Below are positions 5,952-64,000 of a stretch of 64,000 nucleotides of DNA, piece after piece. Location: sequence record OP279344.1; one strand, 5' to 3'. A model generated the notes under the pieces. It ran no database searches. It was given only the letters and a program-made list of their open reading frames with translations, and was not told the DNA's origin. Positions within the stretch are counted from its first letter, which is position 1. Each line of letters starts with the position of its first letter. A program made the position numbers and the translations under genes. This stretch comes from Escherichia phage P1.

Positions 5952-5952
5952 A

Positions 5953-32397: not shown

Positions 32398-32681
32398 GAT
32401 GTGTGCTGGAGGGATGATGCAGGACCAGAATGTGCGATAGAGGGAAGTCGCATTAAATTATGTGCTGTGGAGGGATCGCTGGTATCAAATATGTGTGCTG
32501 GAGGGAAAGGCAGAGAATTACATGTGCACTGGAGGGAAAAACGGATGGACAGATGTGTGCTGGAGGGAAAGTCTGGGCAAACTGCGGGGCGTCCCCCTCC
32601 AGCGCACATCAAAAACAGGAAATTAGACAAGCCTTCCCGGCAGCACACATTTTTTTAATGCAGCTTCCCTCCAGCACACAC
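32398..32681. repeat. incA iteron array (9 copies of a 19-bp RepA-binding repeat, both orientations)
   Basis: Repeats of GATGTGTGCTGGAGGGAAA and its complement, immediately downstream of repA. Confidence 0.85.
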
Positions 32682-33542
32682 TTATTCTGGGAGTTTCAGC
32701 TTTGGATTGCGAGAATGGACGATTACAAAACTTTCCCGGCCTTTCTTCTCAATTGAACAGTCGAGATAGCCGATTGTTTTAAGCTGTTCTATCGCTTTCT
32801 TAATGATACGGTTTTGCTCGCCAACAGCTGACTGCAAAGCCAGGCGCTCACGGATTCGGGCGAAAGATAGCGGCAACGGATTCTGCGGAAGGCTTTCGAT
32901 GAAAGTGTAAATGGCTTGTGCAGCTTCTTTCTTCGGAAGGGCACGCAAGGCGTGGTGTTGCAACAGAACGCGATAATCAAGCTGGAACAGCTCCCACAGC
33001 TTCGAATCAGCCTCCAGCTCTATCAGATCAAGGTCAGCATCAAAACGACCGACCTTTAGCAGACCAGTCTGATAGCCGCCTTTAGCATCTTTTCCGCGCT
33101 TAAAAGCGATACCCTTGTTACGTAAGCGTCCAAGTGATTCATGAATGGTTAAACGCAGTTTCGCATCCAGACGTTTTGAGGGGAAACCACAGGCTTTAGC
33201 GAATTCCTGAAACGATAACTGGATGGTGTTTGAGGACAAGCCGTATTTGCTGAACGCGTAGATGACACCGATCCACGTTTTGAAATCAGTATCCATATCG
33301 AGTCGAGGACCGGTGATTTTAATATCATCGTAACCCTCGGCTTTAGCTATCTCCAGCTGGGAAAACGCTTTGGTGGCATCAATCTCTTTACTTTCTCCTT
33401 TGCTCTTTGATGGCTTCGGAACGAATACCCCCAAGCGCATCAATGCTACAGGCTGGACAGTGTTGTTTGAATTAACTGTTAGTTCTTTTGCCTTACTTTC
33501 AATGTCTGCGTAAAGAATATCGGAGATAAATGATTGATTCAT
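32682..33542 (-). CDS. repA: RepA plasmid replication initiator, 286 aa
   Basis: Flanked by iteron arrays on both sides; size. Confidence 0.9.
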   Translation of the reverse strand: MNQSFISDILYADIESKAKELTVNSNNTVQPVALMRLGVFVPKPSKSKGESKEIDATKAFSQLEIAKAEGYDDIKITGPRLDMDTDFKTWIGVIYAFSKYGLSSNTIQLSFQEFAKACGFPSKRLDAKLRLTIHESLGRLRNKGIAFKRGKDAKGGYQTGLLKVGRFDADLDLIELEADSKLWELFQLDYRVLLQHHALRALPKKEAAQAIYTFIESLPQNPLPLSFARIRERLALQSAVGEQNRIIKKAIEQLKTIGYLDCSIEKKGRESFVIVHSRNPKLKLPE

Positions 33543-33597
33543 ATTACTTTTTCCGAATTGTGTGGATAGTTTTTATAAGTGGTGATAACTACCCAGG

Positions 33598-33825
33598 CTT
33601 TCCCGTCAGCACACATCCTATATCCCGCCAGCACACATTAGCAACCCGTCAGCACACATTTTTATCCCTCCAGCACACATCGTTTTCCCTCCAGCACACA
33701 TCGCGATACACTTCTAAGCCAGACGTGGCGCGGCCTGCAACGATCAGGGATCTATATGGATCTAATTGGGATCTGTATGGACCTAATTATTGGATCTACC
33801 CAGTGGATAATGTGGATAAGTGAAA
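33598..33825. repeat. incC iterons (5 copies) plus oriR elements (five GATC heptamers, tandem DnaA boxes)
   Basis: Five TCCCTCCAGCACACATC-type repeats at 33598-33702; GATC at 33742, 33749, 33759, 33770, 33793; tggataatgtggataag. Confidence 0.8.
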
Positions 33826-33859
33826 AACCGGCCAACATAGCCGGTTGGAAGGAAGGGTA

Positions 33860-34252
33860 TTATTCTACGCTTTCGATAAGAAGACCATGTTCATAGCATT
33901 TAAGCTCATCGCCTTCATACAGGAACTGGTATCCAATACCACCATATTCAGGCACATTAGGGAATAACTCATCACTTACCGAAGAACAAATCACACCAAT
34001 GCAGCGATCAACGCCTTCTCGTTCTTCAGTGCTGAAAAAATCCTCTTCGGTAAGAACATGAGTGCATTGCTCATCAGCATAGGTCGGAAATACATGCTCG
34101 ATGCAATCCGGGTGTTTTAAACCAAGCTGATCGGCAAGCTCGAAAGCATGACGGTATTGTTCAGATCCTGGCTTGCCAACAGTGATTTGCTCAATTTTGT
34201 AGATTGAAGTCGCTTTGTTGATAGTTTGCTTTACTGTTACTTTATCAGACAT
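33860..34252 (-). CDS. Hypothetical protein, 130 aa
   Basis: ORF track. Confidence 0.3.
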   Translation of the reverse strand: MSDKVTVKQTINKATSIYKIEQITVGKPGSEQYRHAFELADQLGLKHPDCIEHVFPTYADEQCTHVLTEEDFFSTEEREGVDRCIGVICSSVSDELFPNVPEYGGIGYQFLYEGDELKCYEHGLLIESVE

Positions 34253-34263
34253 AAAAATCCCTT

Positions 34264-34596
34264 TTAGTTACCACTGATAGCGTGGTTGTAATCATTAACG
34301 TTGCGATTCTTCCTGTTAATCCCCATCAGCATCGTTTCTGTATCAAGGATATAGGCTGGCAGATCATCAAAATATTCACTGCTAAACTCTGGCATCCTGC
34401 ACATAAACGCACTTTTGGGGGCAGGGTGATTAACCTTTGTCGGCGTCGGCGTTAAATTCGCTGATCGACTCCCGGAGCAACCGCTGAGTGTCAACAGGAA
34501 TGCGCTGGCGAACACTACCCGACGCAACCAGTTGTTTCTGAACTTCAGCTTTTCGTTCCATTTGCCTGTCAGCATATTTGGCTTGTTCTGATTCAT
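34264..34596 (-). CDS. Outer-membrane lipoprotein, candidate o-spanin (Rz1-like), overlapped architecture
   Basis: Signal peptide with lipobox LTLSG-C; Pro/Thr-rich mature part; starts inside the upstream gene in another frame. Confidence 0.55.
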   Translation of the reverse strand: MNQNKPNMLTGKWNEKLKFRNNWLRRVVFASAFLLTLSGCSGSRSANLTPTPTKVNHPAPKSAFMCRMPEFSSEYFDDLPAYILDTETMLMGINRKNRNVNDYNHAISGN

Positions 34597-34879
34597 TTTT
34601 CACTTCCTGGCTGTGAAAATGTTGCTCTGCTTTGTTCATCGTCTCAATGGTCTGGTTAAGATCCATTATTGACTTATCACGTTCCTTAACAGCCTGATCA
34701 AGACTGCCAATTTTCTCCATGGCTTGCTTTAGCTGATGACGTTCCCATGCAAACCCAGCACCAACAAGTGCGCAAATCAGAACAAGAACACCAGTAGCAG
34801 CAAGTTTCTCCTTCAAAGACAAAGCTGTTTTTAACGTAGAAAAGAATGACATGTCTTCCTCCTGAAGAAAAATTATCAA
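34430..34879 (-). CDS. Candidate i-spanin (Rz-like): N-terminal transmembrane helix + periplasmic coiled coil
   Basis: Transmembrane segment LAATGVLVLICALVGAGFAW followed by a charged coiled-coil region; 3' end overlaps the lipoprotein gene. Confidence 0.5.
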   Translation of the reverse strand: MIIFLQEEDMSFFSTLKTALSLKEKLAATGVLVLICALVGAGFAWERHQLKQAMEKIGSLDQAVKERDKSIMDLNQTIETMNKAEQHFHSQEVKNESEQAKYADRQMERKAEVQKQLVASGSVRQRIPVDTQRLLRESISEFNADADKG

Positions 34880-34891
34880 TGAAGTCCTTTG

Positions 34892-35680
34892 TTACTGTGC
34901 CGCTTTGTTTAATTCATCAAGAACAGAATCAGGAACCAAAGCGGCAACTGCGCTGGCTGTGCTGGCCTTATTTGCTGATGCTTCCGCAAGCGCGGTACCG
35001 ATAGCATGGTTATAAGCAGTTATGGCTACGTTGGCGCTTTCATTCGCTCGTTCATACTGCTGTTGTAACGCAGTTGTGGGCGCTGTTGTCTGGTTGAAAA
35101 CAACCCCAAACTGTTCAGTTGCTACTTTCAGAGATTCAATTTGCTCTTCTGTTAGTGCTGGTGGGGGAGTGGCAGTGCCGCCGCCTGAACCAGAGCCTGA
35201 CGAGCTTCCTGAGCCAGTGTTAAGGGTCTGGTTAATCTCCCCCATAGCAGCAACTAAACTTGATGTATTAAGCGCGTTTACAGCGTCCTCAAGCGATTTA
35301 GTAATAGTCACATCACCAATGGCAATAGAGATCGGCAGTTCTGAAACTTCTCGCTCATTAGCACGGCAGTAAACATCCCAACCAATATCGAGTTGAAGCA
35401 GCATTGACAGATCTGCATAACCAGCCAACAGGTCCGCGTGCTTAGTTGCCAGTTCGACAATGTTCGTTAAGCCTGTTGTGGTTGTTCTGATCGTTGAAAC
35501 ATAACTGGTAATAGTGTCGGGATAGACAATTGTATCCAAAATTAATCCGATCAATTCTTCTGCAAGCTGTTTTGCCGTGTTAGCACTGTTTCGTGCCGAT
35601 GTTATGGCACCAAGTGTTTTCATCCCACCGGCTGCGGCCAATTTTTTATATGCGGATAACTGGTAGTCTTTTTCCAGCAT
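34892..35680 (-). CDS. Hypothetical protein with Gly/Ser-rich linker, about 262 aa
   Basis: Preferred start ATG 35680 with AGGAG RBS (ORF track extends to 35737). Confidence 0.35.
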   Translation of the reverse strand: MLEKDYQLSAYKKLAAAGGMKTLGAITSARNSANTAKQLAEELIGLILDTIVYPDTITSYVSTIRTTTTGLTNIVELATKHADLLAGYADLSMLLQLDIGWDVYCRANEREVSELPISIAIGDVTITKSLEDAVNALNTSSLVAAMGEINQTLNTGSGSSSGSGSGGGTATPPPALTEEQIESLKVATEQFGVVFNQTTAPTTALQQQYERANESANVAITAYNHAIGTALAEASANKASTASAVAALVPDSVLDELNKAAQ

Positions 35681-35688
35681 GATATCTC

Positions 35689-35973
35689 CTAACTTACCTG
35701 AACTAGGCCGTCTCCGGACGCTACGGTAGATCCGCATGAAACAGGGTCACCAACGCATACGATCCCTTTACCATTGACGGTAAACCATGCCCTGGTTGAT
35801 ATAGCTTGCCCACCGTGCGTACTGTTTCCATCGGTATGCTGTGCATATTGCTTACCATCAACTAACACTTCGACTCCGTTGACTTTAAGTAGTGGTTCAC
35901 TCTCTACAGGAGGCCTGGATGGGAATCCTCCGTGCCCCGAACAAATGCTGTCTTTTGTTGCAATACTTGCCAC
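35689..35973 (-). CDS. PAAR-like small Gly/Cys-rich protein, 94 aa
   Basis: Repeated HGG and VNG-x-GD-x-C-GS spacing resembling PAAR/spike-tip folds. Confidence 0.4.
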   Translation of the reverse strand: MASIATKDSICSGHGGFPSRPPVESEPLLKVNGVEVLVDGKQYAQHTDGNSTHGGQAISTRAWFTVNGKGIVCVGDPVSCGSTVASGDGLVQVS

Positions 35974-36054
35974 GTCGTCACCAATGATTTGCTCTGATTT
36001 TCGTTATTTTAACTTAGGTTATTTGTGGTCTGTATGGCGTTTACTTATTACAAA

Positions 36055-36071
36055 ATTGCTCTAATAAATAT
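36055..36071 (+). promoter_or_regulatory. C1 operator upstream of the uhr-hrdC-dmt operon
   Basis: ATTGCTCTAATAAATAT, 16/17. Confidence 0.6.
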
Positions 36072-36427
36072 TGTTTTTTATATCGTGTTTTCGGTACCAT
36101 TCAGCCATCGCCCTTCAATGGGCATTTGTTTGGAGTCGTCAGATGCAGATGGAGCTAATAAGCCGCAAGGAGTTCGATAGCCGTGTAACCAGCGGTGAAC
36201 TCGACAACTTGCAGGCTATCAAGGTGAAAGAAGGCTTTTGCCTCATTGGGAATCAGAGCGGAACAAATCGCGTTTTTATGCTTCGCCGTACGGATTTGAA
36301 GCCATTTGTCTGGAAGAACGAAATTGGTCCCAGCTCATACGCTCAAACGAGGGGGTGCCACAACTTGGCCTTTTTCTACAAAGACGAGCTTTCTGTGGTT
36401 GATATTCAAGGGTTACAACATGTTTAA
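36071..36427 (+). CDS. Small protein upstream of hrdC; start uncertain
   Basis: ORF track; first in the operon after the operator. Confidence 0.3.
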
Positions 36428-37325
36428 GCACTGGAAAAATATTACTATTTATAAACTTTCTCGTGAGGCGGATCTGACCGACTTAGAAGATAAAAAGAAA
36501 ATGATCCTTTTCACGCCATGCGGTAGTCAGGATATGGCCAAGTTCGGTTTTGTATCGCCATTTGGTGATAATTCCGAAGTTATCGCTATGCATGGAAATG
36601 GTTTTATCCTTGTTGAAGCAAAGCGCGAAACAAAAATTCTTCCCCCGCCGGTTATCCAGCGAGCTATTCAAGAAAAAATTGAAAAACTTGAGCAAGAACA
36701 AGCGCGTAAACTGAAGAAAACAGAGAAGGACTCCCTGAAAGACGAAGTTCTGCATTCTCTTCTGCCACGGGCTTTTTCAAAGTTTTCTGTTATCCAGGCG
36801 ATCTACGACGGTTCAACTAAACGTATCTATATCAATGCCAGCGCGCGGCAGGCAGAGGATATGCTCGCGCTTATGCGTAAGTCTCTGGGTTCTCTTCCTG
36901 TTGTGCCACTAAGTGTTGAAAATCCCATTGAGTTAACGCTGACCGACTGGGTACGTGATGCTAGTGCTCCACAGGGATTTCAAATGGGGGATGCGGCAGA
37001 ACTTAAGGCAGTGCTTGAGGATGGCGGTATCGCCCGAGTGAAAAAGCAGGATTTGGGAAGCGATGAAATTTCCACACACCTGGAAGCTGGCAAGCTCGTC
37101 ACTAAGTTGGCACTCGACTGGCAGAACCGCATTAAATTTACACTGGACCATAACTTCAGCATTACCAGCGTCAATTTTGCGGATGAATTGCTTGAGCAGA
37201 ACTCTGATATTGATAGTGAAGATGTTGCGCAGCGACTGGACGCAGATTTCTTCCTATTGACCAGTGAAATTTCGTGCCTGGTTGATGCTCTGGTAAATGC
37301 CCTTGGTGGAGAGGCTAAGCAGTGA
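36420..37325 (+). CDS. hrdC: RdgC-like recombination-associated protein, about 301 aa
   Basis: N-terminus [16 protein letters not shown] resembles the RdgC start (MLWFKNLMVYRLSR); start taken at the internal Met. Confidence 0.7.
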
Positions 37326-40300
37326 AAGAGCTGTGCTATGGATCTGTTTGCAGTGGAATTGAAGCCGCGAGTATTGCCTGGGAACCGTTGGGTATGCGTC
37401 CGGTTTGGTTTGCTGAAATCGAGCCTTTTCCATCGGCCGTTCTTGCGCTCCGCTGGCCCCATGTCGCCAACCTTGGCGACATGACAAAACTTGCCAAAAA
37501 AGTCTTGGCTGGGGAAATCGAATCCCCTGACGTGCTCGTCGGGGGAACACCATGTTTTACCGCGGGGCATATGGTTCTTTGTAAAAATGGTTATAAACCA
37601 ATAGAAGATGTTTGCCCTGGCGATTACGTAGTCAGTCATCTCGGGCGGTTACAACAAGTAAAAAGAGTTGGTTCAAAAATAGCTAATACGGGGTTACTTA
37701 ATGCCGTTGGGCAGCCTTTAGGTATAAGAACAACCAATGACCATCCCTTCCTGGCTGTTCGGTGGAAAGCCCAAAACACCCGGAAAAATGGCACATATTT
37801 TAAGAGAGAGTTGTTGTCTGAACCGGAATGGCGAGCAGCATGTGATATGCCGGGATATCAATGGTGCGCTCTAACTAATTTCAATATTGCATCTCCAGAT
37901 ATTTGTTCTCGGTTCTTGTCTGAAGAACAGGCTATGTATCTTGCGGGCGCTTATGTTGGCGATGGATATATTAGGAGATGGAGAGGTAAATCTAAGAAGG
38001 CGGTTGTTTTTGGCATAAATTGCCAGAAATTGAGAAAGTTTCATTGCCGCATACCAGAAAACATATTTTCCGTGGCAAGCGAAATCCGAGGGAGCATCAA
38101 AGTAACCTTGAATGATACGTGTTATGCCAATTGGCTTAATGAACATTTTGGCGAGTTAAGCCATGCTAAGCGTATCCCTGCATGGGTGATGTCGCATCCA
38201 TTGCGTCATGTGTTTTTACAAGGCTATCTTGATACTGATGGGACACCAAGTGGTAAAGCGGGATTTAGAATTAATAGTGTTAGTCCTGCGCTTGCTTGGG
38301 GCGTTGCGGGGTTGTCACAGACTTGTGGTTATGTTTCTTCGGTCAGCTTTATTGAAGTTGAGCCCAAAAAAGTGATCGAGGATCGCGTGGTAAATCAACG
38401 GAATTATTATCAGGTAACAATCTGCCCGCAGAAATTGTCACGTAAATCAAGATTGGCTCATGGAATGCTTTTACGAACAGTCAAAGAGTTTAAATCGGTA
38501 GGCCTAGATACTGTATACAACATAGAAGTCGAAGGTGATCATTCCTATATCCTCAATGGTGCGGTGGTCCATAACTGTCAGGCATTCAGTATCGCGGGAT
38601 TACGTGGTGGGCTTGATGATGAGCGTGGCGCGCTAACTTTAAAGTATGTGGAGCTTGCAAATGCAATTGACGACAAACGGGCTGAGTCATTTCTCAAACC
38701 AGCCGTTATTGTCTGGGAAAATGTCCCAGGAGTCTTGTCATCGGCAGATAACGCCTTCGGATGTTTCCTTGCCGGATTGGCTGGAGAAGATGCGCCATTT
38801 GAACCAGGTGATCGACCTGAATCAGGAAAAAGTAACGCGTTCTGGCGGTGGGATGGCAAAACCGGTTGCCATGCTCCAAAGTGGCCGCAGTGTGGTTGTA
38901 TTTATGGGCCGCAGCGAAAGGTGGCCTGGAGAATCCTTGATGCCCAATACTTCGGAGTGGCACAACGACGCCGACGCGTGTTTGTTGTCGCAAGTGCTCG
39001 AACAGACCTCGATCCCGCAACGGTACTTTTTGAGTTCGAAGGCGTGCGCCGGGATATTGCGCCGAGCAGAGGCGAGGGGAAGGAAACTACCAGATATACT
39101 TCAAACATCGCTATCAGATCTTGCGATGATACAAACATAGTTGCCATGGCACATGGGCAAGGAGGGGCTGAGATAAAAACCGATAATTCGGCACCAACTT
39201 TAACATGTAACCATGAAGCACCAATTGTATTGCTCGGCGACGGTAGAATACGCCGTCTTACCCCTGTCGAATGTGAAAGGCTGCAAGGTTTTCCTGATGG
39301 GCATACGTTGATCCCTACGGAAAAGCGTAAAAAAGTTTCTTCAGATGAACTGGCATACCTTCGCAATAACTATCCTGATTTAAGCGAAGAAGAGGCCGCG
39401 ATGCTTGCAGCTGACGGACCGCGTTACAAAGCGATCGGCAATAGTATGGCAATACCAGTAATGCGCTGGATTGGCGATCGGATTACTAAGGCCGTATGTC
39501 GGCAGAAAGAAGGAAGTGAAACAAAAGAGCGAAAAGTTAAACCAGCGGCAGAATTCGAACGGTCCATATTCAAATGGGCTGGTGGAAAATTTGGTGTTCT
39601 GGAACAAATCTTTCGCTATTTGCCAGAAGGGAAGCGCCTGATTGAACCTTTCGTTGGTGGCGGAGCTGTCTTCATGAATGCCGGATACCAGGAAAATCTG
39701 CTAAATGATGTGAATGCTGACCTGATTAACTTTTACAAGACTCTGCAACGCGAGGCGCATTCACTTATCACTCTGGCACATCGTTTCTTCCAGGACTACA
39801 ACACACAGGAAGGATACCTGGCAGTACGGAATGCGTTTAACAAACAAGTCTATGATGATTTACATCGCGCAGCGGCGTTTTTGTTCCTGAACCGACATTG
39901 TTTTAACGGATTGACGCGTTACAACCAGGCCGGTGAGTTCAATGTCGGTTATGGGAAGTATAAAACTCCGTATTTCCCATTACAGGAGATGGAAGCCTTC
40001 CTCGGTGCGGAAGGGCGGTCTGAGTTTGTATGCGGTGATTTTGCAGCGGTGATTGAAGCTGCCGGAGAAGGAGATGTCATCTTTTGCGATCCGCCGTATG
40101 AACCGCTTCCAAATACAGAGGGATTCACGAACTATTCCGGTCATGACTTTAAGTTTGAAGAGCAAAAACGCCTGGTGTCTCTGTTGACGGATGCTCATCG
40201 TCGAGGTGCAAAGGTTCTCATTACTAACAGTGGCGCGCCAAACATCAGAGAGCTTTATCATGACAGTGGCTTCAGAGTGGAACCTCTTTTTGCCAGACGT

Positions 40301-40363
40301 TCTGTGTCTTGTAAGGGGGACACTCGAGGTGTAGCTCATGACGTTTTGGGTATATTGCTCTAA
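37322..40363 (+). CDS. dmt: Dmt bifunctional DNA methyltransferase: N-terminal C5-cytosine MTase interrupted by an intein + C-terminal Dam-like N6-adenine MTase
   Basis: C5 motifs I ([11 protein letters not shown]), IV (GGTPC...QAFSIAG, split), VI (ENVPG), VIII (QRRRRVF), [15 protein letters not shown]; Dam motifs [20 protein letters not shown]; GTG start overlapping the hrdC stop. Confidence 0.9.
37553..38575 (+). mobile_element. Intein (341 aa) with LAGLIDADG homing-endonuclease domain inside dmt
   Basis: Block A CFTAGHMV, block [15 protein letters not shown] and LQGYLDTDG, block G VVHN followed by Cys; excision rebuilds [12 protein letters not shown]. Confidence 0.85.
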
Positions 40364-40370
40364 TAAATTT
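40354..40370 (+). promoter_or_regulatory. Consensus C1 operator overlapping the dmt stop, with an overlapping inverted partial copy
   Basis: ATTGCTCTAATAAATTT, 17/17; followed by TTATTAGTG. Confidence 0.7.
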
Positions 40371-40544
40371 ATTAGTGTAATATCGCCTCAATGAATCGTG
40401 ATTTATAGAGCGATTTAGCTGTTAGCCGCGACAGGCGCGGCGGTAAGCATGGCTGGGCCTAGTCCTCCCAGACAAACCACCGAGTTGCCAGGTTGACCAT
40501 GCGCCTAAGTGGCAACGCCGAAGTGCGTTACGAGCTTCCAGTTT

Positions 40545-40570
40545 GCCCATCTTCGGGTGGGCGTTTTTTT
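40545..40570 (+). terminator. Intrinsic terminator (7-bp stem, UUCG tetraloop, T8)
   Basis: gcccatc-ttcg-ggtgggc followed by gttttttt. Confidence 0.6.
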
Positions 40571-41035
40571 CAGGGTTTTCGTCATGGTTAGCGACTTTGC
40601 GGCGGTTTAGAAACTGACCATTAAAGTAAATGCAAACGATGATCTTATGATGGTAGCGGCCTAAGAAGCCAGATGCCACGGGGTATGAGTCGTCCCCCGT
40701 CAAAAAATCGACCGCAGAGTGTCCCCGTCTGTGTATTAGGGAACGGGGAGGCACAACAGGTAAGGGCGCTGGTGTGATTAACCAGATGAACGAGAAGGGG
40801 CCATCTGTTGGTCAGCGTCCTTTCCTGTTGCGTTTTCTTTTCAGCGTAACAGCGGTGCTTAACAGCACTTTGGGTACAGTTCCACGAATTTACGGGTATA
40901 TCCCGTCATGCTGAAGGCGCTAATCACGCTGGAAGCCAGGGTTGTGCATCCCCTGTTACCGAATTGCAGCTAGGGCGAGGTGCGCCGAAAAGCATACGGA
41001 GGTGGAAGCCCTCGCCGGAGACGTACCCGGCAAGT

Positions 41036-53350: not shown

Positions 53351-54048
53351 AGATTGCTTTAGTTCTTCGCTCTGGTGGTGACTATAACGCTTCCGATGTG
53401 CAGTGGCTGGTTAATCAACTGCCAAAAGACTATGAAATTATTTGCCTGACAGACCTGAAGTGTTTACATGTACCTGGCGTCAAAGTTATCCCATTGATCA
53501 ACCAGTGGCAAAAGTGCCGTGGCTGGTGGGCGAAAATCGAGTTGTTCCGACCGGATATAACCGATGATCTGTTCTATCTGGATTTGGACACGGTTATTGC
53601 CGGTGATATACGCCCAATCCTTGAGAATCCACCAACCAGCTTCACCATGCTTAGGGATTTTTACCATCCACAATATCGTGGTAGCGGTGCCCTGTGGATA
53701 CCAAATAGTGTTAAAGCGCATATCTGGAGTTCATTCTGGCAAGATCCGGAAGGTTGGATTTCTCGTTGTGTCACTACTGAGTGCTGGGGTGACCAGGGGT
53801 TCTTACGAAAGGTTATGGGCGATGATACACCAGCATTTCAGGATCTGTATCCAGGATGGTTTGTAAGTTACAAGGCCGATGTTGTGGAACCTGGTTCAAA
53901 ATATGCGAGCGCGCGTTACTCCAGGGGGAATGGGGCATTACCAAAAGACTGCCGAATAATCTTTTTCCACGGCAAACCGCGACCTCGCGAAGTGTCAGAG
54001 GATTGGCTTCCCCTTATCAGCTCATTTTTTGAGCGAGAATCAGAATAA
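53347..54048 (+). CDS. GT8-like glycosyltransferase, 233 aa
   Basis: YLDLDTV (DxD) and C-terminal FHGKPRP resembling the GT8 HxxGxxKPW motif; coupled to the phosphatase stop. Confidence 0.45.
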
Positions 54049-54049
54049 T

Positions 54050-54115
54050 ATTGCTCTAATAATTCCATATTTTTAAAACGTGATGTACACTCATCACGTT
54101 TTTTATTAGAGCAAT
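54050..54115. terminator. Bidirectional intrinsic terminator flanked by two inverted C1 operator copies
   Basis: ATTGCTCTAATAATTCC ... aaaacgtgatg-tacact-catcacgtttt ... TTTTATTAGAGCAAT. Confidence 0.6.
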
Positions 54116-54349
54116 CTACAAGGTGCACTATGTGGCCATTCCGACGGAAATATCACTACTGGCTGATCGCCTTTGTTACGCCGACCGGCGGTATCAGGCA
54201 TGTCATCACCAGGTATCGCAACAAGAGACTCACCTTAGCCAGAATTTTACAGGCTGCCATAGGTGAGGGACTGGATACAAATTGCGTAGTCCTTCCTCCT
54301 TCATACTTAGGAAAAATGACCGAAGCACAAGCTAATACGGAACTTTGAA

Positions 54350-55612
54350 ATGATCACTTCAGCACAAAACCAATCAATCGAAAATGTATCTATCCCGGAT
54401 GTCCTGAATGCCGGTATCCCGGCCATTATCCAGAACATCCGGGCCGCGCAACGCCGCGTTAGTTGTGATGACCTCACAGCACGTTTTTTTGATAATGCGG
54501 TTCAGTCAGCGGAGATGCTTCACGCACAGCTTATTGATGTTTATAACGCAGAAGCTGATAGCCATAACTCCCTGGTAGATGCAGCTGAAAATATGCAGTT
54601 GGATCTCGGTCTGAAGGGTAAAGAAATTGAAGAGCTTCAGCTGCAAATTGAACATTTGAAACGCCAGCAACAGGACGCGATCGACGATGCGACGCATGAT
54701 GCCAACCAGCGTGCTGATAATGCCGAACGTATAAGCATTGAGCTGGAAACAAAACTCAATGAAATGACCGCGATGGTTGAACTGCGGAACTCACAGATTT
54801 CAACGCTAAAATCTCAATATAAAGAGATCATGAAACTTGATCCTTTTAACCTTGAGAAACGCTATAACAAAGCTAAAAGCGAGCGACAGGAACTGCGTAA
54901 ACAGGTCGCCGACCTTAACCAACAGCTCAAAAAAACTATTAAAGATGCAAGCGAAGCGCGCGTGGCATTTGCTAATAAAAAAGCAGAGGTTACCGCGCTG
55001 GTTAATGAGAATGCCAAATTTGCGACGCTCAAGAAGGAAATGTATGGCATTACTGAGCGCCGTTTCCCTGCAAGCAAACTTCATCCGACGTTAGGGCAAA
55101 TCTCCTTCTTCCCGCGCCTCCTGGCTTATGGGATCTCATCGCCTAAAGAGTTCAATAACGAGCGTCCTTATATCGTTTCTAAGCTGGACTTTGCTTATCA
55201 GTTCTGCTGCGACATGGGCTATGCCATTGATATCCGAATCAACGAATGGTTGATGCCAAACTTCCAGCCGTTGGCAATTTTCCGCGAGTTCCAGCCGGAA
55301 GGTTGGGTAGAGTTCTTCCATGAATTGATCTGTAAAGAGATGGAAAGCCGCCGCCCGGAATTGGTCCGTCGAGTTGAGTGGGCGCAAGAGGTTATGTTGG
55401 CAGATGCAGAGCTGCCGTTCGAACCGGAATTCATTGATGATCTGGCAACTAAAGGGTTGCATACCCTGTTTGATGTGGTTACCCGCCGTCATGAGCAGTT
55501 GGTTGTCGAATTGGGTTTAGAGGAAACAGCGGCAAGAAGACTTCTCGATGTTTGTTATGCACGTAGCGATGCATGGGAAAAAGAGAACGGCGGCACTATT
55601 TACGTTCGCTGA
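54350..55612 (+). CDS. Coiled-coil protein, 420 aa (the 72-aa ORF at 54130-54348 precedes it)
   Basis: ORF track; heptad-rich central region. Confidence 0.35.
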   Translation: MITSAQNQSIENVSIPDVLNAGIPAIIQNIRAAQRRVSCDDLTARFFDNAVQSAEMLHAQLIDVYNAEADSHNSLVDAAENMQLDLGLKGKEIEELQLQIEHLKRQQQDAIDDATHDANQRADNAERISIELETKLNEMTAMVELRNSQISTLKSQYKEIMKLDPFNLEKRYNKAKSERQELRKQVADLNQQLKKTIKDASEARVAFANKKAEVTALVNENAKFATLKKEMYGITERRFPASKLHPTLGQISFFPRLLAYGISSPKEFNNERPYIVSKLDFAYQFCCDMGYAIDIRINEWLMPNFQPLAIFREFQPEGWVEFFHELICKEMESRRPELVRRVEWAQEVMLADAELPFEPEFIDDLATKGLHTLFDVVTRRHEQLVVELGLEETAARRLLDVCYARSDAWEKENGGTIYVR

Positions 55613-55684
55613 TAGTTACAGTGTCACTTTTAATGCTGGTGGAGTGCGCCCACCAGCATTTTTTTCGTCCAATGAGGAGGGCAT

Positions 55685-56191
55685 TTGAGTATTTTCAATA
55701 AACACGCACACCCGGAACGTCCGTACATCGTCATAGTAGATATTGATGGGACGATATCAGAGGCAACGGAAGACAGGCTGCATTTACTTCCACCACCTGG
55801 CAAAGGTGCATTAACAGAGCACTGGAACGAGTTTAACCTTGCCTGTGACACCGATACTCCCATCACTCCAGTTATTGATATGGTGCGCCAGTTATTTAAC
55901 GTTTACACGGTCTGGTTTGTAACCGGGCGCTGTGAGATCGCAAGGGATAAAACACGAGCCTGGCTGCGGAAGTACGTAACAAACGGGGCTGAGCCTTTGC
56001 TATCTATGCGTCCTGCCACCGATGACAGAAATGACGGCCCAGCAAAGATTGATCTCCTTAAGAAAATTGGTCTAAGTAAAATCGCGTTCGCGCTGGAAGA
56101 TAAGATTGAAGTGGCGCGTGTTTTCAGGAGGCACGGCGTGCTTACGTTAATGGTCAGGGAGTATGAAAATGCGCTTCTTCATCAACAATAA
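55685..56191 (+). CDS. HAD-superfamily phosphatase, 168 aa
   Basis: Motif I IVIVDIDGTIS (DxDGT). Confidence 0.6.
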   Translation: MSIFNKHAHPERPYIVIVDIDGTISEATEDRLHLLPPPGKGALTEHWNEFNLACDTDTPITPVIDMVRQLFNVYTVWFVTGRCEIARDKTRAWLRKYVTNGAEPLLSMRPATDDRNDGPAKIDLLKKIGLSKIAFALEDKIEVARVFRRHGVLTLMVREYENALLHQQ

Positions 56192-56207
56192 TTGCTCTAA
56201 TAAATCT
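56191..56207 (+). promoter_or_regulatory. C1 operator abutting the HAD phosphatase stop
   Basis: ATTGCTCTAATAAATCT, 16/17. Confidence 0.6.
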
Positions 56208-56385
56208 TGATTTTTAAAACAGAGAAAGTGAAAATAAAAACATGCCGCAAGGCGCGGCATGTTTCCAATCAATCACAGGAGCTGAAAATATGAACACGGC
56301 ATTCAAAATCATTATGGCCGCGATCTATTTCTGGCTGTTCTCTATCACTTTTGGCGGCATCGTCGCGCATGGGTAAGGGGGATGC

Positions 56386-57174
56386 ATGAAAGGCGAAGTG
56401 AAAGAGCGCGGCATGATTTTCAACGATGAGATGGTCCGGGCCATCCTCGAAGGAAGGAAAACGCAGACGCGGCGGATAATGAAAAATCAGCCTGCGGAAG
56501 TTGGTCCAGAAGCACCAGTGATGGTTAGAAAAATTGGTGCAGGTTTTCAGTGGTACGGGGCTGATGGTGTAAGCAGTGTTTTCAATTGCCCATTTGGTAT
56601 CGTCGGCGATCGAATTTGGGTTCGTGAAACATGGGCGATATTAGGCAATGAGGATGGTTGCAGTGTGGACTGGAACGACAACCTTTGTCGTGGCGATGAG
56701 AAGAACGCAGCAAGGATTTATCGGGCCAGTTGCGAGCAAAAACCTGGTGATTACGGCTTATGGTCGATACCCGATGATGCCGACTGGAAACCTCACACTG
56801 TGAATGAAAAGTTTGATGGTGGGTGGCGTCCATCAATTCACATGCCGCGATGGGCATCACGCATTCTGTTGGAAATTACCAACGTGCGCGTTGAACGGTT
56901 GAACGATATCAGCGAATGCGATGCAAGGGATGAGGGCGTTCCGCCTGCTGGAAGTTTGCTTCCTGATCACCCGGGAACATTCCTTACTCCCAAGGGGGAT
57001 TTCGCAATGGCCAAGGTTGCGTTCCAGCACCTGGAGGATTTAAGCACCGGGAAGAAAGAGGCGTTACCAGTAGATGACGATGGTTACACGTGTAGTAATG
57101 CTGTTTTTGGTGTGATCACTCATGTCATCAATGATGCCCGGAGTGGAGAGTTTGATGATTGTCCGGTCATTTAA
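56386..57174 (+). CDS. Hypothetical protein with N-terminal GRKTQTRR motif, 262 aa
   Basis: ORF track; MIFNDEMVRAILEGRKTQTRR. Confidence 0.3.
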   Translation: MKGEVKERGMIFNDEMVRAILEGRKTQTRRIMKNQPAEVGPEAPVMVRKIGAGFQWYGADGVSSVFNCPFGIVGDRIWVRETWAILGNEDGCSVDWNDNLCRGDEKNAARIYRASCEQKPGDYGLWSIPDDADWKPHTVNEKFDGGWRPSIHMPRWASRILLEITNVRVERLNDISECDARDEGVPPAGSLLPDHPGTFLTPKGDFAMAKVAFQHLEDLSTGKKEALPVDDDGYTCSNAVFGVITHVINDARSGEFDDCPVI

Positions 57175-57246
57175 GCTGCAAAGTGCTGGTGCTTTATGCC
57201 TGTGAAGTTTATAATTGTGTACACATAACGAGTACACGAGGTGTTT

Positions 57247-57468
57247 ATGCAATCCATTAACTTCCGTACCGCGCGCGGCAACCTTTCTGAAGTGCTCAAC
57301 AATGTTGAAGCCGGGGAAGAGGTTGAAATCACCCGCAGAGGCCGTGAGCCAGCAGTAATTGTCAGCAAGGCTACTTTCGAAGCCTACAAAAAAGCGGCGC
57401 TGGATGCTGAATTTGCATCCCTGTTTGACACCCTGGACTCCACCAACAAGGAACTGGTTAACCGATAA
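57247..57468 (+). CDS. phd: Phd antitoxin, 73 aa
   Basis: [39 protein letters not shown]... recognised as P1 Phd; overlaps doc start. Confidence 0.95.
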
Positions 57469-57848
57469 TGAGGCATATATCACCGGAAGAACTTATTGCG
57501 CTTCATGATGCGAATATAAGCCGCTACGGCGGCCTGCCGGGAATGTCTGATCCGGGTAGGGCAGAGGCCATTATCGGGAGAGTTCAGGCCAGAGTTGCCT
57601 ACGAAGAGATCACCGACCTTTTCGAAGTCTCCGCCACCTACCTGGTGGCTACAGCGAGAGGGCATATATTCAATGATGCCAATAAGCGTACCGCGCTAAA
57701 CAGTGCGCTGCTATTTCTACGCCGTAACGGGGTGCAGGTATTTGATTCACCTGAACTGGCAGACCTTACTGTAGGAGCTGCGACTGGCGAGATATCTGTA
57801 TCTTCTGTCGCCGACACGTTACGTAGATTGTATGGTTCTGCGGAGTAG
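57468..57848 (+). CDS. doc: Doc toxin (Fic-fold kinase), 126 aa
   Basis: [13 protein letters not shown] Fic-type motif; TAATG coupling to phd. Confidence 0.95.
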
Positions 57849-58059
57849 ATTAATGGCACGCAAATACAACAAATTGTCCCGTGAAGCGTTAAAGATGCTT
57901 CTTGATGGCGTGAGTCGCCGCAAGGTAAAGCAATACCTGGTTGGTAAGCAAATTGGTGCCAGGACCGCTATTGCTGTGTTATGCCGTCAGGAAATGGTTG
58001 TGCTTAAACAGAGAATGCCGGGCAGCAGATAAAGCCCAATCAGTGATTAAAGGTGTGAT

Positions 58060-59103
58060 GTGAAAGCCATAATTACTCCCTTTGTACAGAAAGAGCTTGG
58101 CCTCGCCACGTTCAAAGTGGATCAGGAGGTCAGAAAGCTGGTGGAGGCTGGCCGTAAATTTATTATGGAGCCGGTGCCGCGTGAGTTAATCGAGCACATG
58201 GAAGACGGCCTCGTTGTTACCGAGCAAACCATGGCAACAAATGAGGCATTGCAGCCGTTTTTTAACAGCGATGAACTGTTTCGCCGTATTGGTGGAATTG
58301 ACGCGCTGGTGGCGTGGTTGCGTAGGAAAGAGGGTCAATGCCAGGCCGCAGATCGTAGTTGGTGTGACAACCATATTGTCCACGCTGAACGAGACAATAG
58401 CGCGGTGTTGTTGTGCTGGCATCACGATAACCATTACCGGATGCGTGGTTTTAATGAGCTGAAAGAAACGCTGCACAATAATCGCGTTAACTGGATACTG
58501 GATGTCGCCCGTCAGGAAATGGGCCTTTCAAATAGCCATGATTTAAGTATTCAGGAGCTGTGCTGGTGGGCTTTCATGCGCAACATGATGCACCTGATGC
58601 CGGAAGAAGTCTGCCGCATATCAATAAATAAGATGAAGGCTACTCCGCAGGATAGCGGACCTCTGAAAGAGGCGGATATTCGCCCGTATGACGATCGCGC
58701 TACAGCATATGTTCAGATGATGGAAGAACGCTCCGCGCCGATGCGTGCAAAAGTATGCCCTGTGGATGTTGACTCCGACCCAGGTATGGCGCATTTCAAA
58801 ATACCAAAACTTCAATCGCTAAAATTACCTGAGTACATGGACTTTGTTGCTTCCCGTCCATGCTGTGGGTGTGGAGCTGCGGGAGCTGGCGCTCACATTA
58901 CGCCTTATATCGTTCGTCATAGTCGATTATGCGCGCATGACATTTACGCAATTCCTCTGTGCCAGTCATGCCAGCGTGATATTGAGCGTGACCGCTATAA
59001 TTGGGAGAAGACGCACGGTAGGTTGGCGATGCATCAACGATTGTTCTTTGATTACGCGCTTGGAGTGGGCGTTATCACAAGTCATTCGTCGAGTGTTAGA
59101 TAA
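58060..59103 (+). CDS. Hypothetical Cys-rich protein downstream of doc, 347 aa
   Basis: ORF track; the 66-aa ORF 57832-58032 precedes it. Confidence 0.35.
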
Positions 59104-59104
59104 A

Positions 59105-59121
59105 ATTGCTCTAATGTATTG
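59105..59121 (+). promoter_or_regulatory. Degenerate C1 operator-like site upstream of lpa
   Basis: ATTGCTCTAATGTATTG, 14/17. Confidence 0.4.
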
Positions 59122-59191
59122 CTATTTCTTTAATCGAGGGTATTATATTCCACGTTGATTAGTTGACATGGGCTAATCAGTAGGTGACAGG

Positions 59192-59644
59192 ATGTTACTT
59201 AACTGGCAGGGACGCCACTTCATGGAAATAAATCACTCACGAATAACATCGTACGAGATTGCGGATTACATGATCCGCACTAAATCTCTTCTATCAGCGA
59301 AAGAACTCGCAGCAATTCTTGAAAAGGAATACCCGCATCTGGATGTCGATAAGCGCGATGTTTATCTGCGCTTAAAGGCTATCGCTGTGTCTAAGTATTC
59401 GTCTGTTTTGATAGATGACAGTACACGCCCACGTAGATTTCAGATCCACTCTCTGAATCCTGAATTCTTTCGCCGTAGCCGCGCTCCGCGCCGGTTTGAT
59501 GAAAAACTCCAGAACGAACTCTATATGACGCAGGACGAAAAGGAACGCCGGGAGCACCAGCCTTGGGTAATGGCGCGTCAACTTTTCAATAAGGTGGCCC
59601 GTCAGCACCGTCATTACGGTAATGCCACATCCGCACGTATCTGA
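59192..59644 (+). CDS. lpa: Late-promoter activator candidate, 150 aa
   Basis: Small basic protein immediately upstream of pacA; positional. Confidence 0.5.
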   Translation: MLLNWQGRHFMEINHSRITSYEIADYMIRTKSLLSAKELAAILEKEYPHLDVDKRDVYLRLKAIAVSKYSSVLIDDSTRPRRFQIHSLNPEFFRRSRAPRRFDEKLQNELYMTQDEKERREHQPWVMARQLFNKVARQHRHYGNATSARI

Positions 59645-59729
59645 TTGATTGCTTGCCCGTTCCGGGCCTTTTGACATGTGACTTTCGTTACCCTCGCGTC
59701 AAAAAGAGTTTTTACGAAAGGAAGCATAA

Positions 59730-60923
59730 GTGACCTGGGACGATCACAAGAAGAATTTTGCTCGCCTGGCGCGAGATGGTGGTTACACCATCGCACAGTA
59801 TGCCGCCGAGTTTAATCTTAACCCTAATACCGCACGTCGTTATCTCCGTGCCTTCAAAGAAGACACCAGGACTACGGACAGCCGCAAGCCAAATAAGCCA
59901 GTCAGGAAGCCACTAAAAAGCATGATCATTGATCACTCTAATGATCAACATGCAGGTGATCACATTGCGGCTGAAATAGCGGAAAAACAAAGAGTTAATG
60001 CCGTTGTCAGTGCCGCAGTCGAGAATGCGAAGCGCCAAAATAAGCGCATAAATGATCGTTCAGATGATCATGACGTGATCACCCGCGCCCACCGGACCTT
60101 ACGTGATCGCCTGGAACGCGACACCCTGGATGATGATGGTGAACGCTTTGAATTCGAAGTTGGCGATTACCTGATAGATAACGTTGAAGCGCGGAAGGCC
60201 GCGCGCGCTATGTTGCGTCGGTCCGGGGCCGATGTTCTGGAAACCACTCTTCTGGAAAAGTCTCTTTCTCATCTCCTTATGCTGGAGAACGCCAGGGATA
60301 CGTGTATTCGCCTGGTGCAGGAAATGCGCGATCAGCAAAAAGACGATGATGAAGGTACTCCGCCTGAATACCGTATCGCGAGCATGCTAAACAGCTGTTC
60401 CGCGCAGATAAGCAGCCTGATCAACACCATTTACAGCATCCGGAATAACTATCGAAAAGAAAGCCGGGAGGCGGAAAAGCACGCTTTGTCTATGGGGCAA
60501 GCTGGCATTGTTAAGCTGGCATACGAACGAAAGCGTGAAAATAACTGGTCAGTGCTGGAAGCGGCTGAATTCATCGAGGCGCATGGAGGAAAAGTGCCGC
60601 CCCTGATGCTGGAGCAAATCAAAGCCGATCTGCGTGCTCCTAAGACCAATACCGATGATGAGGAAAACCAAACAGCATCTGGCGCTCCATCACTTGAAGA
60701 TCTGGATAAAATCGCGCGAGAACGGGCCGCCAGCCGCCGCGCTGATGCCGCATTGTGGATTGAGCATCGTAGAGAAGAAATTGCCGATATCGTCGATACA
60801 GGTGGTTATGGTGATGTCGATGCGGAAGGCATATCAAACGAAGCATGGCTTGAACAGGATCTGGACGAAGACGAGGAGGAAGACGAAGAAGTTACCCGCA
60901 AACTGTACGGGGATGATGATTAA
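59730..60923 (+). CDS. pacA: PacA terminase small subunit, 397 aa
   Basis: Contains the pac site; acidic C-terminus; coupled to pacB. Confidence 0.85.
59923..60081. other. pac packaging site: 4 + 3 TGATC(A/G) hexamers flanking a ~90-bp core
   Basis: Hexamers at 59923, 59930, 59942, 59957 and 60053, 60065, 60076; each contains a GATC Dam site. Confidence 0.8.
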
Positions 60924-62407
60924 TGGCCAGAAGTTGCGTAACGGACCCACGTTGGCGCGAGCTTGTGGCGCTATATCGTTATGACTGGATTGCGGCCGCT
61001 GATGTGTTGTTTGGGAAGACACCAACCTGGCAGCAGGATGAGATCATTGAGTCCACGCAGCAGGACGGCAGTTGGACAAGTGTGACCTCCGGCCATGGTA
61101 CTGGTAAATCGGATATGACGAGTATCATTGCAATACTCTTCATCATGTTTTTCCCCGGCGCTCGCGTCATTCTGGTCGCTAACAAAAGACAGCAAGTCCT
61201 TGATGGTATTTTCAAATACATAAAGAGCAATTGGGCTACTGCTGTTAGCAGATTCCCGTGGTTGTCGAAGTATTTCATTCTTACAGAAACGTCTTTTTTT
61301 GAGGTGACTGGCAAGGGTGTTTGGACAATATTGATAAAGTCCTGTCGTCCCGGAAATGAGGAGGCGTTGGCTGGTGAACACGCCGATCATCTCTTGTATA
61401 TCATCGACGAAGCGTCGGGTGTGAGTGATAAAGCATTCAGTGTGATAACAGGTGCGCTGACCGGTAAGGATAACCGTATTCTGCTTCTTTCCCAGCCTAC
61501 GCGACCTTCAGGCTATTTCTACGATTCACACCACAGACTAGCTATTCGCCCGGGAAATCCTGATGGATTGTTTACTGCGATAATACTGAATAGTGAAGAA
61601 TCTCCGCTTGTAGATGCAAAATTTATACGAGCAAAACTTGCGGAGTATGGCGGTCGTGATAACCCCATGTACATGATCAAAGTACGTGGTGAATTTCCCA
61701 AATCTCAAGATGGCTTTCTTCTTGGTCGTGATGAGGTTGAGCGGGCGACGCGGCGAAAGGTCAAGATTGCCAAAGGATGGGGCTGGGTTGCATGTGTTGA
61801 CGTTGCTGGTGGCACAGGACGAGATAAGTCCGTTATTAATATCATGATGGTGTCCGGCCAGCGAAATAAACGCCGTGTAATCAACTATCGTATGCTGGAA
61901 TACACAGACGTTACAGAAACGCAGTTAGCCGCCAAGATTTTCGCAGAATGTAACCCAGAACGGTTCCCGAACATAACCATAGCTATTGATGGCGATGGCT
62001 TGGGGAAATCGACGGCTGATCTAATGTACGAACGCTATGGCATTACCGTCCAGCGTATCCGCTGGGGTAAAAAGATGCACAGCCGTGAAGATAAAAGCCT
62101 TTATTTCGATATGCGCGCTTTCGCGAATATTCAGGCGGCAGAAGCTGTAAAATCAGGGCGTATGAGGCTTGATAAGGGGGCTGCGACTATAGAGGAAGCA
62201 TCAAAGATACCGGTAGGGATAAATTCCGCAGGTCAATGGAAGGTGATGTCAAAGGAAGATATGAAGAAAAAACTCAACCTGCACTCACCGGACCATTGGG
62301 ATACATATTGTTTCGCTATGTTGGCGAACTATGTTCCCCAAGATGAAGTGCTTAGCGTCGAAGACGAAGCGCAGGTTGATGAAGCTCTGGCATGGCTTAA
62401 TGAATAA
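60923..62407 (+). CDS. pacB: PacB terminase large subunit, 494 aa
   Basis: Size, position, TAATG coupling to pacA. Confidence 0.8.
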
Positions 62408-62431
62408 CTCATTAACCATGCCGGATGGAAA

Positions 62432-63319
62432 CTATTGCGCGCTTTCGGGGTTGTCGTTTACTGGCTGCCCCTTCTTAGTTTTGCGGCTGCGCGTAACTGA
62501 TGCGGCTGATTTGACCTTTTTCTCTTCGCGAGTGATGGCAATTTGTTTTTTTACATTTTCAATATCTGCCAGGCGATATATTTTTGCCTGCGGCCAGCGG
62601 TCGCAGATGATCGGTTCTATAGAGTCATAAAGGCTAAATTTTGCTTTCTCAAATTCACCGTTGATGATGATTCCATCTCGGAGAGTTTCATCGCAGATAA
62701 ACACGCCACATAGCGGCACATGGTAACTAACTGATTTGCCATCATTGTAGTTAGGGCTACTGGAAATGTAATGGACGCGCAGCATTGTTTCGCTAAAGCC
62801 GTGTACGCGCATACGGAATTTTTCATCCTCCGGGTACTGCTTCATTAGCTCTTTTGTTGCTTCCAGGTTCTCTATGTATTTCGCACTGTGCTCATTGATC
62901 CCCGCGCTTTTTTGGATGCGAATGTCCTTATCAATCAGATGAATAATGCGGCCAGCGGTCATATTGACGCTGTTCACTGCTTCTGTCTGATAAGTCGTAA
63001 CCTTACGCACACCGCGAAGGATGTTAGGTACAGGATATAAAATAGTCTTTGGGATATTGAGATCTGGGTACTGCTCCAGTTCCCGCGCCATTAATGTCCA
63101 TTTATCAATTTCAGCCTGAATGCTGTCCGTTTCTTTGAACGGCAGAACGACAACCGGGCGAACAGGACGACCGTCGCTGGCGGCATCAACGTGTTGGGCG
63201 CGTGCAACAGCTTTTTTTAGAAAGAGATCCCTGAAGCTGACGAACTCCTGGTACAGTGTTCGCCGTAGACATAATTTATCATTGATCCTCCTCCAGAATT
63301 GACATGGCCAACAACTCAC
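62432..63319 (-). CDS. c1: C1 repressor of lysogeny; annotated frame begins at GTG 63319, but the SD-preceded ATG at ~63282 is out of frame (see findings)
   Basis: Body LYQEFVSFRDLFLKKAVARAQHVDAASDGRPVR... recognised as P1-family C1; C1 operators upstream. Confidence 0.8.
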   Translation of the reverse strand: MSCWPCQFWRRINDKLCLRRTLYQEFVSFRDLFLKKAVARAQHVDAASDGRPVRPVVVLPFKETDSIQAEIDKWTLMARELEQYPDLNIPKTILYPVPNILRGVRKVTTYQTEAVNSVNMTAGRIIHLIDKDIRIQKSAGINEHSAKYIENLEATKELMKQYPEDEKFRMRVHGFSETMLRVHYISSSPNYNDGKSVSYHVPLCGVFICDETLRDGIIINGEFEKAKFSLYDSIEPIICDRWPQAKIYRLADIENVKKQIAITREEKKVKSAASVTRSRKTKKGQPVNDNPESAQ

Positions 63320-63376
63320 AGCGGATTACACTGGGAGTTGTTGGCCACCATTATAGAAGGATCCAACGAAAATAAT

Positions 63377-63393
63377 AGATTTATTAGTGCATT
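63377..63393 (-). promoter_or_regulatory. C1 operator-like site between coi and c1
   Basis: Minus strand AATGCACTAATAAATCT, 14/17. Confidence 0.5.
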
Positions 63394-63602
63394 TATTGTG
63401 AGTCTGGCTGGTTAGTGGCCATGAGATATTCGATTGTGTCAGTGAGATCATCCAGGTCGTCTTGGGTGATGCGGTACTCCTGATTGGATATCTTTGAGTA
63501 GTGTTCAGCAATGGCGCGGGCAGCGTCGGTTTCGGCGGGGTCTACAGATAAAGCGTTAGAGCAATGTCTAACGTCGTCGATGGTTGGTGGAATGAAAGCC
63601 AT
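63393..63602 (-). CDS. coi: Coi (C1 inactivator), 69 aa
   Basis: 69-codon acidic ORF immediately upstream of c1 on the same strand; positional. Confidence 0.55.
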   Translation of the reverse strand: MAFIPPTIDDVRHCSNALSVDPAETDAARAIAEHYSKISNQEYRITQDDLDDLTDTIEYLMATNQPDSQ

Positions 63603-63840
63603 AATTATGCCTCACTGTATTGACAACACAGAGCCTGAAGCTCTGACCTACTGTTTCACCCATGATCCATGCTGGGGTAATCTAACAACATTGCGCTGTG
63701 TGTAAGATGAGCAATGTATAGCTGTAATGCCGTTGTATAAGGTTTCCCTGTTTGCTCATTTCCTTCTGAGCCGCTCTACAACGCTGAAGACACATTAAAT
63801 AGTGAATCCAAAGTCGTATTACGAAACGGCGGCAAAACTA

Positions 63841-63857
63841 TAATTTATTAGAGCAAT
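63841..63857 (-). promoter_or_regulatory. C1 operator upstream of coi-c1
   Basis: Minus strand ATTGCTCTAATAAATTA, 16/17. Confidence 0.65.
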
Positions 63858-63923
63858 TGTCAAACAACTATGAAAAACAATCCAGTTTTTGGCTGGTGGA
63901 GTGGGATTTTTCTCTCAAAATTT

Positions 63924-63940
63924 ATTGCTCTAATAATTCT
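63924..63940 (+). promoter_or_regulatory. C1 operator upstream of coi-c1
   Basis: ATTGCTCTAATAATTCT, 15/17. Confidence 0.6.
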
Positions 63941-63983
63941 TGATTTTTATGCGCAGCTGGACGTAAACTCCTCTTCAGACCTA

Positions 63984-64000
63984 ATAACTTCGTATAGCAT
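63984..64000. other. loxP, left arm and start of spacer (site truncated by the window end)
   Basis: ATAACTTCGTATA + GCAT matches the 13-bp loxP arm and the first 4 nt of the spacer. Confidence 0.7.

Follow-up and report, generated by a model that had tools for sequence, protein, structure and literature searches.

Can the c1 locus of this close relative of Escherichia phage P1 still provide the primary immunity repressor, C1? The stretch of DNA analysed here (64,000 nt; hereafter, the window) comprises the 64 kb next to lox in a very close P1 relative and is base-for-base P1 (NC_005856) over roughly 40 kb. The initial annotation of this DNA noted that the Shine-Dalgarno-preceded ATG of c1 is one nucleotide out of frame with the body of the repressor, and it offered three origins for this arrangement: a genuine lesion, a sequencing error in a short A run, or an unusual start codon. 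Our analysis favors the first, largely but not absolutely excludes the second, and rejects the third. Specifically, we assign a probability of about 80% to the reading that the locus carries a genuine, recent c1 null allele in a viable, lytic-only P1 variant.

Since the window is mostly base-for-base identical to P1, the P1 annotation could be transferred directly to immC. The order there is loxP half-site, Oc1e, P1coi/Oc1d, imcA, imcB, coi, Oc1ab/Pc1, c1, and the convergent pacB. The surroundings are those of a P1-type c1, with imcA, imcB and coi upstream, Pc1 with its Oc1ab operator in front, pacB convergent downstream and lox nearby. An operator scan also returned a match at 63377-63393, in the Pc1/Oc1ab region. 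The coordinates of the main features are collected in Table 1.

Table 1. Features of the c1 locus and of the private fusion gene, in window coordinates
Feature	Position	Strand	Evidence
c1, primary immunity repressor C1, broken by a 1-nt deletion	62432..63282	minus	alignment, ORF table, NCBIfam match
Shine-Dalgarno sequence GGAGGAGG, 4-nt spacer (ATCA) to the native ATG	63287..63294	minus	sequence; anti-SD duplex -12.1 kcal/mol
Residual ORF from the native ATG, MINYVYGEHCTRSSSASGISF: 8 authentic C1 codons, 13 out-of-frame codons, TAA	63217..63282	minus	ORF table
Lesion site, codon 9: CAA (Gln) in relatives, CA/C in the window	63256..63258	minus	alignments, indel list
C1 residues 10-283 and stop, shifted into the -1 frame from the ATG; 100% identity to wild-type C1	62432..63256	minus	tblastn, repaired translation
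GTG opening the artefactual 295-aa ORF (ORF 62432-63319)	63317..63319	minus	ORF table
Pc1 promoter (-10 TATAAT, 63355-63350) and bivalent operator Oc1ab, identical to P1	63350..63393	minus	P1 annotation transferred at 100% identity
coi (C1 inactivator), intact, P1-identical	63393..63602	minus	ORF table, P1 comparison
A7 run, c1 codons 22-24, length kept in the window	63212..63218	minus	comparison with public contigs
In-frame pmgT'-'humD fusion, 262 aa	56386..57174	plus	private 2.7-kb deletion versus P1 85136-87822

On the minus strand, the native c1 ATG occupies 63282-63280. CTGGAGGAGGATCA lies directly 5' of it, and the frame continues ATA AAT TAT GTC TAC GGC GAA CAC TGT ACC AGG and so on to TTC TAA. 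The ORF table and the sequence agree with the earlier description of this frame, which opens MINYVYGEH and stops after 21 codons in place of an uninterrupted 283-codon ORF; the spacer to the Shine-Dalgarno sequence, previously put at five nucleotides, is one nucleotide shorter. The 274-residue C1 body, beginning LYQEFVSFRDLFLKK, lies in another frame. As had been claimed, and as the ORF table and tblastn bear out, this frame is reached from the GTG at 63319; the first 21 residues of the resulting 295-aa ORF, MSCWPCQFWRRINDKLCLRRT, are unrelated to C1, and the remaining 274 correspond to C1 residues 10-283.

Homology searches divide the protein at the same place. By tblastn, C1 residues 1-9 (8/9 identical) and 10-283 (100% identical) were found in two adjacent frames. 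Residues 21-295 of the GTG ORF matched positions 9-283 of the 283 positions in the NCBIfam profile NF041318 (phage_rep_C1) with 590 bits against a cutoff of 500, and profile positions 1-8 are encoded in the adjacent frame. No model in the Pfam copy that we searched, and no chain in the PDB, matched C1. A second c1 copy was not found by tblastn in the 64-kb window of this genome of roughly 92 kb. By descent, the locus is a member of the P1-type C1 family, but a disrupted (pseudogene) copy. It shares with wild-type c1 (NC_005856 93231-94082, encoding C1.100; WP_000611656.1; NF041318, Pfam PF27008) the immC location, coi upstream and pacB convergent downstream, together with identical Pc1, Oc1ab operators and Shine-Dalgarno sequence. 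In contrast to wild-type c1, it lacks one A of codon 9.

The lesion itself is a single nucleotide. Positions 63180-63420 were aligned with P1 NC_005856 and with pSA20094620.3, a Salmonella P1-like plasmid used as c1 comparison; the alignment has one gap, and the remaining 240 nt are identical. Exactly one A is missing, which confirms the deletion previously suspected in GAACA(A)CTG near codon 9. The missing base is one A of GAACAACTG, between window positions 63257 and 63256 (P1 position 94056); the deleted allele reads GAACACTG, and GAA-CAA-CTG has become GAA-CAC-TG. Re-insertion of the A gave a 283-aa protein identical to the wild-type C1 of pSA20094620.3 (WP_000611656.1), so that the length given for P1 C1 in the initial annotation fits the repaired frame. 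Against the P1 reference protein, the repaired product has a single difference, at residue 193, which is Gly in the window and Cys in the temperature-sensitive C1.100. Correspondingly, the 852-nt P1 reference c1 differs from the window at two nucleotides, the 1-nt gap and the c1-100 site, and the allele of pSA20094620.3 differs by the gap only.

Loss of one nucleotide in the tandem AAC-AAC context is what spontaneous slippage gives. Apart from the missing A, the c1 body matches an intact wild-type allele throughout; the deletion is therefore evolutionarily very recent, with no pseudogene decay. As a separate observation, the c1-100 site (window 62707) has the wild-type codon for Gly193 and P1 reference genomes carry Cys193; the lineage is therefore not derived from P1 c1-100.

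The deleted allele was looked for in other sequences. Among the matches listed (20 phage, 703 plasmid and 720 E. coli records), all span 1252 nt against the 1251-nt query, and therefore the relatives carry the extra base. The 47-mer across the deletion had 0 matches in these phage, plasmid and E. coli records, in IMG/VR and in GTDB genomes, and a 29-mer across it had 0 matches in JGI metagenomes; the wild-type 48-mer matches at least 120 IMG/VR contigs. In the collections searched, the deleted allele is thus absent outside the same strain, and they hold no reference c1 allele with the identical sequence, a finding that the initial annotation had named as one that would speak against a lesion. 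An exact look-up of the 295-aa GTG product gave no match on record, and our literature search found no description of a P1, P1vir or P1-like strain with a c1 frameshift.

An allele that occurs nowhere else in thousands of P1-like sequences, and that amounts to a single-base indel in a short AA run, would also be expected if one base had been dropped in the consensus and the real DNA had GAACAACTG and an intact c1. It is unlikely, however, that the base was lost in the consensus or during assembly, because the deletion is present in an independent assembly and the window is free of indel noise. Looking up the private pmgT'-'humD fusion protein identified the Logan assemblies of two SRA runs, SRR21091647 and SRR21091449. 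The run prefix SRR21091 occurs in none of the papers searched. Contig L132, which an independent assembler built from SRR21091647, is 100% identical to window 53386-64000 (10,615 nt), deletion included. The SRR21091449 assembly is 100% identical to the window over 7,987 nt and carries the pmgT'-'humD lineage marker; of the contigs from the two runs, the one reaching c1 has the identical deletion. These runs may be the same data as the deposited record, and the agreement would then test the assembly and not the DNA. In other words, the agreement would in that case exclude an assembler or polishing artefact but, strictly, not a systematic read error.

The composition of the window bears on read error as well. 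In the 51 kb aligned to P1 at ≥99.5% identity, 238 homopolymer runs of at least 5 nt match P1 in length, and the only two exceptions are both at divergent-patch borders. None of the 238 is miscalled in P1-identical DNA, the A7 run 40 nt downstream of the lesion included. The lesion lies in a run of merely 2 nt, which is not a typical error context. Furthermore, c1 has the sole isolated 1-nt indel in conserved coding DNA relative to P1; the other 1-nt indels are non-coding or at the edges of divergent patches.

Other public assemblies do have c1 frameshifts that resemble homopolymer errors (A6 or A8 in place of A7), often beside other split genes. These A7-run frameshifts (for example, Logan SRR14366213, GCA_900448525.1 and GCA_974498845.1) also disrupt the N-terminal part of c1, and a 219-aa product is called from Met65; this truncated C1 is listed in 86 index blocks. 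Six contigs with a truncated C1 were examined (L126-L131), of which three have A6, two have A8 and one has a scaffold gap, and several contain other split genes. In the window, by contrast, A7 has its usual length and the break lies in the 2-nt run, 40 nt further upstream. The A7 breaks suggest either sequencing errors or a slippage hot spot, possibly for spontaneous clear mutants. In L127 (SRR14366213), which has A8 at this run, the other genes of the contig are intact. Considering all these observations, we hold an artefact in the window to be improbable, albeit the least improbable of the alternatives to a genuine null allele.

With a genuine deletion, ribosomes recruited by the strong Shine-Dalgarno sequence would initiate translation at the native ATG and release a peptide of 21 residues. 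The -1 frameshift falls at codon 9 and the frame of the body has no Shine-Dalgarno-preceded start; no plausible start codon would reach the C1 body together with the conserved N-terminus, and c1 would be null. In the absence of C1, the C1-controlled operators still present genome-wide would stay unrepressed. Using a 17-bp asymmetric consensus (ATTGCTCTAATAAATTT) as the operator query, we found 14 C1-operator-like sites with at most 3 mismatches in the window, against 0.3 expected by chance, which is the dispersed-operator arrangement of a P1-type C1 system. Unable to establish or maintain a plasmid prophage, the phage would be confined to lytic growth and form clear plaques. Judged from the sequence, loss of repressor activity with a lytic-only phenotype is the most likely outcome. 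C1 is necessary for lysogeny (PMC8198154), and CRISPRi in P1 has shown c1 to be non-essential for plaque formation (PMC10695390).

Neither coi nor immI (c4, icd, ant) shows any difference from P1, and the other P1 ORFs in the window are all intact, a 2.7-kb deletion aside. Because immI is unchanged, the phage should stay sensitive to the immunity of a resident P1 and should not plate on P1 lysogens. Users of the strain should expect a strictly lytic, clear-plaque P1 variant whose lytic behaviour comes from immC and not from immI changes of the P1vir type. For annotation, the locus is best marked as a frameshifted c1, and the 295-aa GTG ORF should not be called a repressor.

If the source were a plasmid in a growing bacterial isolate and not a phage stock, it would be difficult to see how the host survives with c1 null. 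Moreover, a second repressor copy or a suppressor could lie outside the visible 64 kb of the roughly 92-kb genome, and a low level of initiation from the GTG, like rare -1 slippage, could escape a reading of the sequence alone.

The requirement of C1 for lysogeny belongs to classical P1 genetics, and loss-of-function c1 alleles have been known for more than 50 years. Classical P1 c1 mutants form no lysogens, give clear plaques and are still sensitive to the immunity of P1 lysogens. Clear-plaque c1 mutants of P1, including amber alleles such as c1.55, reportedly go back to Scott (about 1968-1970). Their phenotype is the one predicted for the window, whose allele is a -1 frameshift at codon 9. 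The lesion is a new allele of this long-known null class; it brings no new principle or mechanism, as it is an unremarkable inactivating mutation of a gene that is already very well known.

P1vir is also a lytic-only P1 derivative, as predicted for the window. Its virulence has been attributed to immI, and according to Cech et al. (PMC8198154) its c4-ant/PkilA region carries three substitutions compared with NC_005856. In contrast, immI/PkilA of the window (19100-21100) has 0 differences from NC_005856, and the defect lies in immC. The lack of immI changes rules out identity with the P1vir of Cech et al.

The lesion could instead have been engineered or selected in the laboratory, as a c1 knockout providing a strictly lytic P1 for transduction or delivery. 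Such a history would bear on how the allele arose rather than on how it acts, and it overlaps with the null allele that we favor. Most of the window, about 40 kb, shows 0 differences per kb from laboratory P1, and none of the natural plasmids listed comes as close; the genome also has two private lesions, both tolerated in lytic growth. Against this, the site shows neither a scar nor a marker nor any designed sequence, the par/rep/dmt patches are distinct from those of P1 and P7 alike and point to a natural mosaic, and no description of such a strain was found in the literature. A laboratory allele is consequently a rather remote prospect, slightly behind that of an artefact.

Another possibility is that a working repressor is made, from the GTG at 63319 (295 aa) or by rare -1 slippage in the 13-codon overlap, the element being temperate or plasmid-borne. 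The GTG falls inside the inferred Pc1 transcript, about 24 nt downstream of its inferred start (the position of Pc1 being taken from the P1 annotation), and shares its frame with residues 10-283. The genes for plasmid maintenance, repA, parAB and phd/doc, are intact. Furthermore, as far as the sequence goes, UCU-UUC-UAA would let tRNA-Phe re-pair in the -1 frame (P-site UUC to UUU).

Several findings argue against production of C1 by either route. Pairing with the anti-Shine-Dalgarno sequence amounts to -12.1 kcal/mol for the native ATG, -3.0 for the first in-frame internal ATG (Met65) and 0.0 for the GTG, in agreement with the earlier statement that this GTG has no Shine-Dalgarno sequence. 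All relatives carry the extra base, so that in none of them does the GTG frame lead into the C1 body, and therefore the 295-aa product is no native form. The N-terminus of C1 homologues follows the pattern M-(V/I)-(N/D)-Y-x-x-G-E/A-x-L-Y, and across 13 homologues, with identities as low as 54%, Y4 and G7 never vary; in the window, Y4 and G7 are out of frame with the body, and the GTG product would lack them along with the start of the predicted N-terminal helix.

This helix spans residues 4-28 in an AlphaFold2 model built from a 13-sequence alignment. The model is weak overall (mean pLDDT 58.5), with a pLDDT of about 84 for residues 1-20, and only the confident N-terminal helix was used, as a soft argument: according to the model, the lesion would decapitate it. 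Lacking a Shine-Dalgarno sequence, being out of frame in relatives and missing the conserved N-terminus (Y4, G7), the GTG-initiated 295-aa repressor was rejected as a frameshift artefact.

Frameshifting fares no better. A direct reading of the overlap found no slippery heptamer of the X_XXY_YYZ type between codon 9 and the TAA, and A_AAA_AAG starts within the stop codon. A programmed frameshift or recoded gene was rejected, as the relatives have one continuous ORF and the 47-mer or 29-mer across the deletion has 0 matches in six collections. Transcriptional slippage in the A7 run was likewise rejected as a rescue: the TAA consists of a T and the first two As of the run, and an extra A therefore leaves the 0-frame TAA in place. 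It is unlikely that C1 is still made from the deleted allele, and we give a working repressor very little credence. Least probable of all is a stable plasmid prophage that obtains enough repressor through the SD-independent GTG 63319 or through tRNA-Phe -1 slippage at the TAA; were it true, the allele would be a leaky c1, and either the conserved C1 N-terminus would be dispensable or recoding could rescue it.

Outside immC, the window diverges from P1 in patches at about 5-6 kb, at about 25 kb and at 29-42.6 kb. The first (5900-6000), at the U'/U junction in the invertible C segment, has about 46 differences and small indels, and the second (25000-26000) has about 42 differences in the bplB/pmgG region; both clusters are short and surrounded by P1-identical DNA. 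The par/rep patch is of the P7 type: parS/parB/parA is 97.3% identical to P7, and ParB and ParA are 43% and 58% identical to P1. From repA to upfC, identity is about 97% to both P1 and P7, and tciA is replaced by a P7-like terB homologue at 42119-42553. A P1 × P7 laboratory hybrid is ruled out by the identity of the par/rep patch to P7, at only 97.3%. Since the DNA flanking 29000-42600 is P1-identical, the genome is best read as a P1 backbone with a recombinant maintenance region in that interval.

The second private lesion is the 2.7-kb deletion that fuses pmgT to humD. It lies between imperfect 10-bp repeats, and its junction (57024-57033) falls within this microhomology, CCAGC(A/G)CCTG. Lost are pmgU, pmgV, upfM/N/O, hot and lxr in their entirety, together with the 3' part of pmgT and the 5' part of humD. 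Neither IMG/VR nor a set of 474 plasmid records contains the junction; the Logan assemblies of SRR21091647 and SRR21091449 both have it. According to CRISPRi data, pmgT, pmgU, pmgV, upfN, upfO, hot, lxr and humD are non-essential for P1 plaques, upfM not being among the genes tested (PMC10695390). The deletion is a lineage marker linked to the c1 lesion and removes dispensable genes.

The homologue of dmt, the bifunctional DNA methyltransferase gene (37322-40363, plus strand), encodes 1013 aa compared with 754 aa in P1. The extra segment of about 1 kb (37555-38576) is absent from P1 and P7 and has Pfam Hint_2 and LAGLIDADG_3 matches inside the C5-cytosine methylase part; it looks like an intein with a homing endonuclease. 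Lastly, the end of the window (63984-64000) is exactly the left half of loxP, following the coordinate convention of the P1 reference. Positions 10616-11789 of L132 run on through lox into cre, and the genome is therefore contiguous there.
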